A stretch of DNA of 64,000 bases from Escherichia coli (GTDB lineage: Bacteria > Pseudomonadota > Gammaproteobacteria > Enterobacterales > Enterobacteriaceae): assembly GCF_965641715.1 (NCBI RefSeq), contig NZ_OZ282453.1; one strand, 5' to 3'. The notes below the pieces were generated by a model, which saw nothing but the letters and a program-made list of their open reading frames with translations, was not told where the DNA came from and ran no database searches. The position numbers were made by a program, and so were the translations under genes. Below, piece after piece: positions 11,560 to 62,708 of the stretch (within the stretch, counting starts at the first letter, position 1; the number at the start of each line of letters is the position of its first letter).

Positions 11560-11732
11560 AAAGTTCTTTGACGTTGCATTGCTGGCGTAAATGTCAGCAA
11601 TGCAGCATTTCCTCACGATTCTCCTTTGACGATCGCACTTTTTGCTCGTTATGATGGCGTCGCTAGCCTCAGTAAATCCTTACTCCGGCGGTGCGCAACC
11701 CGTGCGCGTGAACCACTATCTGAATGCTCATC

Positions 11733-30963: not shown

Positions 30964-32052
30964 TCACGGCAGGCGGTGGCGGGCTTGATAATAAGCCTGC
31001 CAGTGAGCTTCTTTATGTGTGGCGACACGCTGTTCGAAGTAACGGCGCAGGCGCGCGCGATCTTCTTCGTTATCTTTGACGATGGTTCCGGCAATACAGT
31101 CCACCAGGTCGGCAGGCTCCCCCGCACGATTCGCTAAAAACCAGGCGCGGACGCCCACGGCGTGGGCCACGTTCACGGCTTCAGCCGTGGACATAATCGC
31201 TGTTAGTGTATCCATTGACGTTTTCTTTTCGCCGTTGGCACGCAGATCGCGGAAGGTGCGGACCAGTAACTCCAGTACCGCGTCAGGCACTTTATGCGGA
31301 ATACCGCTATGGGCCAGCAAACGCGCCGAAGCACTGGCGACAAGCTCCAGCTCCTGGGCGAAATCCATAATCGGAAAGACAGTTTCAAAATCGAAGCGAC
31401 GCTTTAGCGCAGCACTCATTTCATTGACGCCGCGATCGCGGGTATTGGCAGTGGCAATAATATTAAAGCCTTCTCGCGCATAGAGCTGACTGGCTTCACC
31501 TGTGAGTTCCGGTACCGTCATCACCCTGTCAGAAAGCATACCTAACAGACAGTCTTGCACTTCCAGCGGTGTACGCGTTATCTCTTCAAAACGGACGATT
31601 TTGCCGTCGCGCATTCCCTGGTAAAGCGGGGCAGGGACCAGCGCTTCCGTTGATGGACCATGATTGATAAGCAGGGCGTAGTTCCAGCCGTACTTGATTT
31701 GATCTTCGGTAGTAGATGCGCCGCCCTGGATGGTTAACCCGGCATCGCCGCTAATAGCGGTTGCCAGTAATTCAGACAGGAGAGATTTTGCGGTGCCAGG
31801 TTCCCCCACCAACATCAAACCGCGTCCGGTGGCAAGAGTGACTAACATACGTTCGACAGCGGAGGGACTAATCACCACTTTACGGCTAATATTTTGCGCG
31901 CTATCGCCAAGGATAAAAGCACGGGCCGCAGGCAAACTTAACTGCCAACCGGGCGGGCAAGGTGCGTTATCATTTTGTTTTAATTTTGTCAGTTCATCGG
32001 CGTATAACACAGCAGCAGGCGGACGCTGCAGATGATTATTCTGCGGTGACAT
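30964..32052 (-). CDS. yehL: MoxR-like AAA+ ATPase YehL
   Basis: Walker A LVGEPGTAKS, Walker B-like IVRFEEI, sensor-1 IIATANT; start at MSPQNNHLQ. Confidence 0.85.
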   Translation of the reverse strand: MSPQNNHLQRPPAAVLYADELTKLKQNDNAPCPPGWQLSLPAARAFILGDSAQNISRKVVISPSAVERMLVTLATGRGLMLVGEPGTAKSLLSELLATAISGDAGLTIQGGASTTEDQIKYGWNYALLINHGPSTEALVPAPLYQGMRDGKIVRFEEITRTPLEVQDCLLGMLSDRVMTVPELTGEASQLYAREGFNIIATANTRDRGVNEMSAALKRRFDFETVFPIMDFAQELELVASASARLLAHSGIPHKVPDAVLELLVRTFRDLRANGEKKTSMDTLTAIMSTAEAVNVAHAVGVRAWFLANRAGEPADLVDCIAGTIVKDNEEDRARLRRYFEQRVATHKEAHWQAYYQARHRLP

Positions 32053-32161
32053 ATATTCATCCCTGAAATGTATTAATGAAATAAACGATATTTTACGCGC
32101 AATAAATGTTTGGCGCATTAGTTGTTTGAGCGAAAAATATCTGGAAAGCAGATCACAGTAA

Positions 32162-32244
32162 ATAAAAAAACCTGCTGGTGAGGCAGGTTCTTTTATTTAC
32201 TACTTTGATGTTAAGTTACTGATACTGCAACATGGCATCTCAAC
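32162..32244 (-). ncRNA. orzO: putative type I antitoxin sRNA (OrzO-like)
   Basis: minus-strand promoter TTGCAA-17 nt-TATAAT; 5' end is a 19-nt near-direct copy (17/19) of zorO 5' UTR positions 32392-32410, so the RNAs can pair; 3' end at hairpin ACCTGC/GCAGGT plus U-run. Confidence 0.5.
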
Positions 32245-32250
32245 GAGCGA

Positions 32251-32301
32251 ATTATAACCACCTCGCGACCGTGTTGCAATTAAGATAATGAGATTTATAA
32301 T
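32251..32301. promoter_or_regulatory. overlapping divergent sigma70-like promoters sharing one palindromic -35 hexamer
   Basis: TTGCAA (32274-32279) is its own reverse complement; minus strand -10 TATAAT at 32251-32256 (17-nt spacer); plus strand -10 TATAAT at 32296-32301 (16-nt spacer). Confidence 0.5.
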
Positions 32302-32482
32302 CCTGACTGTTGGGAAGTTGCGCCGGATCGAACCCATTTCAAGTCCTGGCTACCGGACGGGTGGTGCCGCAGGTAGTGCTCTGATCCGGAGTGCAACATG
32401 GCGACTCAACATACGTAAACCAGTATCGACAGGCAGCGTAAGGGTAAGGTGCTGGTGTTGCGCTCCTTAATAAGGAGAGCGG

Positions 32483-32572
32483 ATGGACACGCTGACACAA
32501 AAGTTAACCGTGCTCATTGCTGTACTGGAGCTATTAGTAGCTCTGTTACGGTTGATTGATTTGTTGAAGTAA
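32483..32572 (+). CDS. zorO: type I toxin, 29-aa hydrophobic peptide (ZorO/ShoB-like)
   Basis: ORF MDTLTQKLTVLIAVLELLVALLRLIDLLK with AAGGAG RBS 5 nt upstream, verified codon by codon; long leader from predicted TSS near 32308; not in the ORF track. Confidence 0.7.
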   Translation: MDTLTQKLTVLIAVLELLVALLRLIDLLK

Positions 32573-32593
32573 CGGGCAAATTGAAACGCATCT

Positions 32594-32620
32594 AAGGGGG
32601 AAACCGCTTCCCCCTTTAAT
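32594..32620 (+). terminator. hairpin downstream of the toxin ORF
   Basis: perfect 9-bp inverted repeat AAGGGGGAA / TTCCCCCTT with 5-nt loop, weak T tract. Confidence 0.45.
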
Positions 32621-32680
32621 AAAGCTATACTCGTCATACTTCAAGTTGCATGTGCTGCGACTTGAATTATCTAGAGTATA

Positions 32681-32998
32681 TTATTCTATTTCTTGGTTGA
32701 ATATATTCTGTAGTTCACGATTAAAAATTGCTATTACAGTTTCAGGTGATTCACCTCGTAATTTCCGCTCATCAATACACTCATCTCTTATATAAATCAA
32801 CGCATCATTTATTAGCGGGTCAGCATCTTCTCGATCACGTTGATGAAATGTTGGATGTAGCCGGAATCGCTCCAGTCGATAGACGGAACCTGTAAATAAT
32901 TCAGAGCATTTATGGACCTCAAGTCTGAAGGAAAACGGATCTTCAGGTACAGGGACCTCATAATCGTAAATAGCAACCAGCTCTTTTTGCACGATCAT
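32681..32998 (-). CDS. yehK: uncharacterised protein YehK
   Basis: 105-aa ORF between yehI and the toxin locus; translation matches remembered YehK. Confidence 0.8.
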   Translation of the reverse strand: MIVQKELVAIYDYEVPVPEDPFSFRLEVHKCSELFTGSVYRLERFRLHPTFHQRDREDADPLINDALIYIRDECIDERKLRGESPETVIAIFNRELQNIFNQEIE

Positions 32999-54644: not shown

Positions 54645-54778
54645 CAACCAAACGACTCGGGGTGCCCTTCTACGTGAAGGCTGAGAAATACCCGTATCAC
54701 CTGATCTGGATAATGCCAGCGTAGGGAAGTCACGGACCACCAGGTCATTGCTTCTTCACGTTATGGCAGGAGCAAACT
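54645..54778 (+). ncRNA. TPP riboswitch (THI-box) leader of thiMD
   Basis: conserved THI-box CTGAGA...ACCTGATCTGGATAATGCCAGCGTAGGGAA; expression platform overlaps the thiM RBS GGCAGGAG. Confidence 0.9.
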
Positions 54779-62595: not shown

Positions 62596-62708
62596 GTAGG
62601 ACGGATAAGGCGTTTACGCTGCATCCGGCAACCTATGCCTGATGCGACGCTGAAGCGTCTTATCATGCCTACACAGCGCTGCCACGTATGTTTACACTGC
62701 ATCCGGCA
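62596..62708. repeat. BIME with three REP units
   Basis: GTAGGACGGATAAGGCGTTTACGCTGCATCCGGCA, GCCTGATGCGACGCTGAAGCGTCTTATCATGCCTACA and partial TGTTTACACTGCATCCGGCA. Confidence 0.75.

Follow-up and report, generated by a model that had tools for sequence, protein, structure and literature searches.

A putative Q-type zor/orz type I toxin–antitoxin module in the yehL–yehK intergenic region of Escherichia coli

The Escherichia coli window analysed here (the whole 64 kb stretch of DNA) very probably contains an intact, single zor/orz type I toxin–antitoxin module, positioned at the standard site of this family and carrying the Q specificity allele; its mechanism of action is drawn from the literature on the O allele. 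Our type I reading follows from the identity of the encoded peptide to ZorO, the score of the small RNA (sRNA) gene against Rfam family RF02083, the genomic site, and compensatory changes between the sRNA and its target. Judged by sequence, the module belongs to the Q type, encodes the protein sequence of ZorO and has a rare C20G change in the sRNA, an assignment based on comparison with loci encoding ZorQ A20S rather than with a published orzQ reference sequence. The original prediction, of a ZorO/OrzO-like module, was correct regarding the family and the toxin, whereas the specificity allele proved to be zorQ/orzQ and not OrzO. The present analysis directly established the sequence identities and the family membership, as well as the geometry, the potential for pairing and the covariation.

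The presence of zor/orz at this position is already known, and the only addition made here is the rare single-base variant of the sRNA. Published work has described the locus and its site, its single and tandem forms, the variability of the region that pairs, the existence of a third locus type and strains with orz only, such as K-12 (PMC2887945, PMC3919570, PMC5397157, PMC11264685). The biology in print between 2010 and 2024 includes a membrane-depolarising toxin, standby-site and RNase III control, an association of copy number with intestinal pathotypes, and an aminoglycoside phenotype seen at multicopy only.

Organization of the toxin gene, its leader and the antitoxin RNA

The features of the module and its flanking genes are collected in Table 1. 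A 29-codon ORF with an AAGGAG ribosome-binding site (RBS) had been predicted, and both were present (32483-32572 and 32472-32477, respectively), with the ATG 5 nt downstream of the RBS. The hydrophobic peptide read from this ORF, MDTLTQKLTVLIAVLELLVALLRLIDLLK, is ZorO of E. coli O157:H7 residue for residue: an exact-sequence look-up returned 'Small toxic protein ZorO' (UniRef ZORO_ECO57), confirming the identity suggested originally. No model matched the window peptide in an NCBIfam scan, and family membership therefore had no curated model to be checked against. Among 29 sampled copies, the zor ORF was represented by 13 distinct DNA alleles, the differences being mostly synonymous, with a few conservative replacements. 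The ZorO protein is toxic in experiments (PMC2887945, PMC3919570); it localizes to the inner membrane, depolarises the membrane and lowers ATP (PMC9860968, PMC6669753). The terminator-like hairpin downstream of the ORF was kept in all compared units, and was not called by the consensus terminator scan because its T run is short.

Table 1. Features of the zor/orz module and flanking genes, in window coordinates
Feature	Position	Strand	Description and basis
yehL	30964-32052	-	As annotated in homologous RefSeq genomes
orz antitoxin sRNA gene	32244-32161	-	~84 nt, Q-type seed; Rfam RF02083
orz intrinsic terminator	32161-32201	-	Extended A/U-flanked stem; terminator scan, fold
orz -10 hexamer	32251-32256	-	TATAAT; promoter scan
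Palindromic -35 hexamer, common to zor and orz promoters	32274-32279	both	TTGCAA; promoter scan
zor -10 hexamer	32296-32301	+	TATAAT; promoter scan
zor 5' UTR	32309-32482	+	174 nt; start site set by homology
Region homologous to published EAP ('exposed after processing')	32381-32410	+	+73 to +102; coordinates from PMC5397157 and PMC11264685
Orz seed target	32392-32410	+	UGCAACAUGGCGACUCAAC, +84 to +102; direct repeat, duplex, covariation
RBS hairpin	32460-32480	+	Anti-RBS CUCCUUA with UAAGGAG; inverted repeat I9
zor toxin ORF	32483-32572	+	29 aa plus stop; ORF listing
zor mRNA terminator-like hairpin	32596-32620	+	GGGGGAA-loop-UUCCCCC, then short U tract; sequence and fold
yehK	32681-32998	-	As annotated in homologous RefSeq genomes

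A leader of ~175 nt had been proposed for the toxin mRNA, which agrees well with the 174 nt that result from a homology-based start site at 32309. The RBS would then occupy +164 to +169, the same position as the RBS of published zorO (PMC5397157), and the published 28-nt 5' processing, when transferred to the window, would give a 5' end at 32337. A conserved GGAGTG motif (32388-32393) lies within the EAP-homologous region. In the predicted fold, leader positions +1 to +22 are paired with +74 to +102 and the RBS is sequestered, with a predicted unpaired probability of 0.07. The published opening of +73 to +102 after removal of the first 28 nt was not reproduced by thermodynamic folding, in which the probability of this region being unpaired went from 0.30 for the full leader to 0.25 for the shortened one, and the folding energy of the leader is ordinary for its composition (z = -0.47). 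The folds are consequently compatible with the published model, and do not constitute evidence for it.

On the opposite strand, the 5' end of orz was set at 32244 by homology to the mapped OrzO start site, with nt 1-19 of the sRNA forming the pairing seed. Rfam RF02083 (OrzO-P) matched 32164-32237 (-) over the full model length with 88.8 bits, against a gathering score of 60. The length of the putative transcript is in keeping with published Orz sRNAs of ~85 nt (PMC2887945), and its predicted fold leaves the 5' end free, with a small hairpin and the terminator hairpin behind it (-24.2 kcal/mol, z = -4.5). The core of the terminator reads AACCUGC-loop-GCAGGUU followed by U7 at 32195-32161 (-), and the terminator coincides with inverted repeat I3, the 19-nt arms of which are 95% complementary. 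A promoter of consensus type and a terminator had been claimed for the sRNA; both were found, although only the -10 hexamer is a true consensus, the promoter as a whole (TTGCAA/17/TATAAT) scoring 10/12. The zor promoter (TTGCAA/16/TATAAT) likewise scored 10/12. The -10 hexamer of orz was kept in all homologous units and that of zor was kept across units. A single -35 hexamer serves both zor and orz, and the two divergent units thus have overlapping promoters; a 2024 survey gives this TTGCAA hexamer for 99.4% of loci (PMC11264685).

The same general layout is found in shoB-ohsC, tisB-istR-1 and dinQ-agrB, in which a small membrane-toxin mRNA with a long processed 5' UTR is paired, far upstream of the RBS, by a divergently encoded sRNA (PMC5397157). 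These systems differ from the window module in having other toxin families and other sRNAs. The comparison to ShoB-OhsC that was drawn originally is valid for the architecture, but not for family membership: shoB-ohsC was rejected as an assignment, as the ohsC model (Rfam RF02495) scored 33.6 bits against a gathering score of 50, making the resemblance architectural only. The weak ohsC match to orz arises because the terminators are similar.

Pairing specificity and assignment of the allele

The sRNA and the leader had been predicted to pair over about 18 nt by virtue of a 17/19 repeat. We observed the direct repeat between 32226-32244 and 32392-32410, with 17/19 identical positions and copies 166 nt apart; a repeat of this pattern with up to 3 mismatches has a chance expectation of 0.03 over the entire 64 kb. 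Measured from the AUG, the target is 73-91 nt upstream, inside the interval of ~72-92 nt that characterizes the family. Watson–Crick pairs form between sRNA nt 1-6 and 32410-32405, and between nt 9-19 and 32402-32392. Between these blocks lie a G·U pair (U8 with G32403) and a mismatch (A7 with A32404). The pattern is therefore 6(1)12: 18 pairs, one of them G·U, and one internal A·A mismatch. For the window Orz on its own leader, the duplex is predicted at -30.8 kcal/mol. Published experiments defined a rule for repression: pairing must be either continuous over at least 15 pairs or, with one mismatch, discontinuous over at least 17 (PMC3919570), and the window satisfies the discontinuous form of this rule if the G·U pair is counted.

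Predicted energies were compared for cognate and non-cognate combinations. OrzO on zorO, the validated pair, gave -31.3 kcal/mol, OrzP on zorP -34.0 kcal/mol, the common Q allele on its leader -34.4 kcal/mol and the B2-type Orz on its leader -32.9 kcal/mol; in every sampled full unit the cognate duplex was -30.8 kcal/mol or stronger. Non-cognate Orz/leader combinations ranged from -15.7 to -24.4 kcal/mol. These include OrzP on zorO (-18.9 kcal/mol), which gave no repression in experiment (PMC3919570), and OrzO on the window leader, where the pairing is broken (-23.4 kcal/mol). Cross-pairing between the window and O alleles is predicted to be poor in both directions (-23.4 and -15.7 kcal/mol).

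The window seed, GUUGAGAUGCCAUGUUGCAG, has GCC as V1 and faces the target UGCAACAUGGCGACUCAAC, a combination that is neither O nor P. The OrzO seed, GUUGGUACGAAAUGUUGC, has GAA as V1, and the sequence that defines the O allele is absent from the window: seed positions 5-11 read AGAUGCC in the window compared with GUACGAA in OrzO, and the leader target differs in step. For reference, we used the tandem units of an O157-like strain. The yehL-proximal unit has the seed GUUGGAACACGAUGUUGCAC and encodes ZorP (T3S), and the yehK-proximal unit has the seed GUUGGUACGAAAUGUUGCAC and encodes ZorO; their assignment as P and O agrees with the V1 values of ACG for OrzP and GAA for OrzO reported by Wen et al. 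2014 (PMC3919570).

Two sampled units with a window-type seed and C at position 20 (L012 and L013) share 19 of the first 20 seed nt and an identical target with the window, and encode MDTLTQKLTVLIAVLELLVSLLRLIDLLK, which is the A20S variant. According to the 2024 survey, A20S defines ZorQ, the marker of the third locus type, zorQ/orzQ (PMC11264685). Across the whole unit, identity to the window was 97.6% for a Q unit (L007), 97.0% for the Q unit encoding ZorQ (L012), 94.8% for the B2-lineage type, 90.3% for P and 88.3% for O. The window resembles zorQ/orzQ (PMC11264685) in its seed (GUUGAGAUGCCAUGUUGCA) and target (UGCAACAUGGCGACUCAAC), promoters, RBS and 29-codon ORF, with units 97.0-97.6% identical. 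It differs in encoding A20 (ZorO) rather than the A20S of ZorQ, in having G20 instead of C20 in the sRNA, and in being a single intergenic copy; in the Q units sampled, two units stand in tandem and the Q unit is the one nearer yehK. With C20G, a pair found in the common Q allele is lost (-34.4 vs -30.8 kcal/mol). In an allele-specific search with a 66-nt query, the orz type of the window was present at ≥95% identity in 858 of 5,426 complete genomes (~16%), and the exact window allele in 2 of the 5,426.

Compared with zorO-orzO of EDL933 (PMC2887945, PMC3919570, PMC5397157), the window has an identical toxin, an sRNA of the same Rfam family, the same architecture and genomic site and, if the start site is taken from homology, a leader of equal length with the RBS and the target at the corresponding positions; it differs at seed positions 5-11 and at the matching leader bases, with V1 being GCC in the window and GAA in O, and the unit as a whole is 88.3% identical. 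The zorP-orzP pair belongs to the same family with the same architecture, and its natural duplex is also mismatched at seed position 7; it differs in its seed (GUUGGAACACG...) and, in O157-type strains, in the T3S change of ZorP.

A fourth Orz seed, GUUGGGGCGCCAUGUUGCAU, was observed in strains FDAARGOS_1292 (L004, 1005-1265) and D8 (L016, 1022-1282), where it is paired with a leader target identical to that of the Q type (-32.9 kcal/mol). Around 240 genomes match the window orz segment at ~89%.

The original prediction proposed conservation of the 19-nt match in homologous loci as a test of function. Five alleles entered this comparison (window, common Q, B2-type, P and O), the seed of each being concatenated with the target from the same unit. 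Of the resulting seed/target cells, 94% form standard pairs, compared with 25-40% when the register is slid. Complementarity is maintained by compensatory changes: across the four seed classes, 5/20 pairs change on both sides (seed positions 5, 6, 9, 10 and 11), which answers the test in favour of function. None of 500 shuffles reached the observed values for cells paired, for pairs or cells changed on both sides, or for the covariation score, and 2/500 reached the observed count of further pair types. Within these sequences the covariation pattern is clear, though the statistics are thin with five alleles only, and it agrees with the 99.8% of 2,439 loci that retain pairing potential in the published survey (PMC11264685).

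These results bear on other explanations of the locus. We consider it extremely improbable that the short ORF and the 19-nt repeat are products of chance, or the fossil of an old duplication, with no RNA–RNA function. The ORF is tiny, nothing at this position is annotated by RefSeq and no NCBIfam model matched, but the peptide is an exact match to a protein that is toxic in experiments (PMC2887945, PMC3919570), the Rfam match exceeds the gathering score, the repeat is unexpected by chance, compensatory covariation affects 5 pairs, and 3,391/5,426 genomes contain one full unit or more. There is just as little to recommend the view that the module is the true O allele, the zorO-orzO of EDL933, such that EDL933 OrzO would repress the window toxin mRNA. 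That view accounts for the identical protein and the common Rfam family; yet the seed differs at positions 5-11 and in V1, the target differs in step, OrzO is predicted to form a duplex of -23.4 kcal/mol on the window leader, and the unit is 88.3% identical to O vs 97.6% to Q. The strict O-allele reading was rejected at the level of sequence on the basis of the seed, V1, target and unit identity.

More deserving of attention, though still improbable in our judgement, is a module that is structurally intact with weakened antitoxin control, in which the A·A mismatch, the G·U pair and C20G place the duplex at or below the repression threshold; silencing would then depend mainly on leader structure, or the locus would be decaying. 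The 6(1)12 pattern holds only if the G·U counts and is otherwise 6(2)11, and 5(2)11, the closest design to have been tested, gave no repression (PMC3919570). In addition, the window duplex is 3.6 kcal/mol weaker than that of the common Q allele, and the exact orz allele is found in only 2/5,426 genomes. However, at -30.8 kcal/mol the duplex equals that of the validated OrzO/zorO pair (-31.3 kcal/mol), the combination of A·A and G·U is present in ~858 genomes with a Q-type seed, natural OrzP/zorP is also mismatched at seed position 7, and the RBS and the ORF are intact, as are the two promoters and the two terminators.

Genomic site and distribution

The predicted location between yehL and yehK was borne out by the flanking ORFs and by annotated homologous regions. 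The gene order yehM-yehL-[module]-yehK-yehI matches that of annotated E. coli genomes, including the O157-like strain with tandem P and O units, and the published site is the yehI-yehL intergenic region, at the Z3289/Z3290 locus (PMC2887945). Many E. coli chromosomes align with the window at 97-98% identity over 14 kb, and the yehL–yehK intergenic region of the window is 99.6% identical to that of strain PapM-32-1, from a baboon. At least one full zor/orz unit was found in 3,391 of 5,426 genomes; in published work, single-copy and tandem forms account for 25% and 42% of genomes, respectively (PMC2887945, PMC3919570, PMC5397157, PMC11264685). Neither the toxin nor the sRNA is annotated by RefSeq at the module site in the homologous genomes inspected, so that finding them takes careful reading or an Rfam scan.

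When one genome per species was scanned with a conserved 21-nt leader word, the only species recovered was Escherichia whittamii, with P-type and O-type copies, and the scan returned no Q-type copy outside E. coli and added nothing at greater phylogenetic distance. In strain Sa2BVA5 of E. whittamii (L018, reverse strand, ~300-1410 of the reversed locus), the P-type and O-type units are in tandem as in O157, indicating that the P and O seeds are shared across species; one of the two toxins carries Q6R. K-12 KLY (L003, 2546-2621 and 2640-2730) has an intact orzP (RF02083, 99.9 bits) and has kept the shared promoter region, with ~28 nt of the zorP leader left before a deletion that extends into the palindromic repeat beside yehK. 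The orphan antitoxin of K-12 is published as OrzPmg (PMC11264685). In strain ZF34 (L015), the yeh site harbours an array of at least three zor ORFs; copy numbers of three or more are described as rare among genomes in the same survey (PMC11264685).

In L004, L005, L007, L008, L011, L014 and L017, the annotation of yehK beside the module is often that of a frameshifted gene, a gene with an internal stop, or a 'hypothetical protein' of different length, the 3' end of which overlaps the 3' end of zor. The yehK end of the intergenic region is therefore variable among strains. A palindrome with 25-nt arms (I2; window 32626-32680) separates the zor terminator from the stop codon of yehK. This small dispersed repeat, unannotated in RefSeq, occurs at a median of 5 sites in an E. 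coli genome and gives a weak partial match to isrH (22 bits).

The yehL–yehK intergenic region is bracketed by a 27-nt imperfect inverted repeat (32051-32077 / 32680-32706; 21/27 matching, with the outer 9 nt perfect). No equally good repeat arose in 100 dinucleotide shuffles of 32000-32800. In 17 other loci, arm 1 is invariant and arm 2, which lies inside the 3' coding end of yehK, varies, with 18-21/27 matching. Since the variation in arm 2 is without compensation, mobile-element ends and a long-range RNA stem were dropped as explanations, and the repeat is probably a relic or due to chance.

Other Rfam matches above gathering scores in the window were a Peptidase-S11 RNA (11648-11728 (+), 72.8 bits), a TPP riboswitch (54648-54744 (+), 71.2 bits) and naRNA4 (62599-62669 (+), 64.5 bits), all of which are ordinary E. 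coli features.

Proposed regulation and implications

Transcription, toxicity, 5' processing and the mechanism based on RNase III and a standby site are carried over to the window from studies of the O allele. By this analogy, the plus strand would produce an mRNA with a 174-nt leader and the 29-codon ORF, the product of which would be the small inner-membrane toxin ZorO. The minus strand would produce an sRNA of ~84 nt from a promoter with the common -35 hexamer, and the single-stranded 5' end of this sRNA may pair with +84 to +102 of the leader. As in zorO-orzO, Orz would block a ribosome standby-like region and trigger cleavage by RNase III. Experimentally, binding of OrzO blocks translation and triggers RNase III-dependent, Hfq-independent decay (PMC3919570, PMC5397157). 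Growth arrest by the toxin, with RNase III-assisted rescue by the sRNA, has been demonstrated for EDL933 zorO-orzO only (PMC3919570, PMC5397157).

The leader may also exert control over itself. The RBS is predicted to be hidden in a hairpin, and the first ~22 nt would cover +74 to +102 until 28 nt are removed. Because of this pairing, the unprocessed mRNA would mask both the standby-like region and the antitoxin site. In experiments, removal of the 28 nt opens the region and raises zorO translation (PMC3919570, PMC5397157).

More speculatively, the Q-type seed and the B2-lineage seed (GUUGGGGCGCC), which have a common leader target, could represent specificity classes insulated from O and P, with the C20G change placing the window right at the measured threshold of repression; we regard this combined proposal as unlikely. 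If it were true, the window strain, with its single copy, would be leakier for ZorO than strains in which the common Q allele is present. The 2024 survey already discusses how variable the pairing region is and that it probably serves to prevent cross-talk (PMC11264685).

The main value of our result lies in annotation. The allele call also has a practical side: with a Q-type allele, reagents and rules derived from EDL933 OrzO should not be assumed to be active on the leader of the window zor mRNA.
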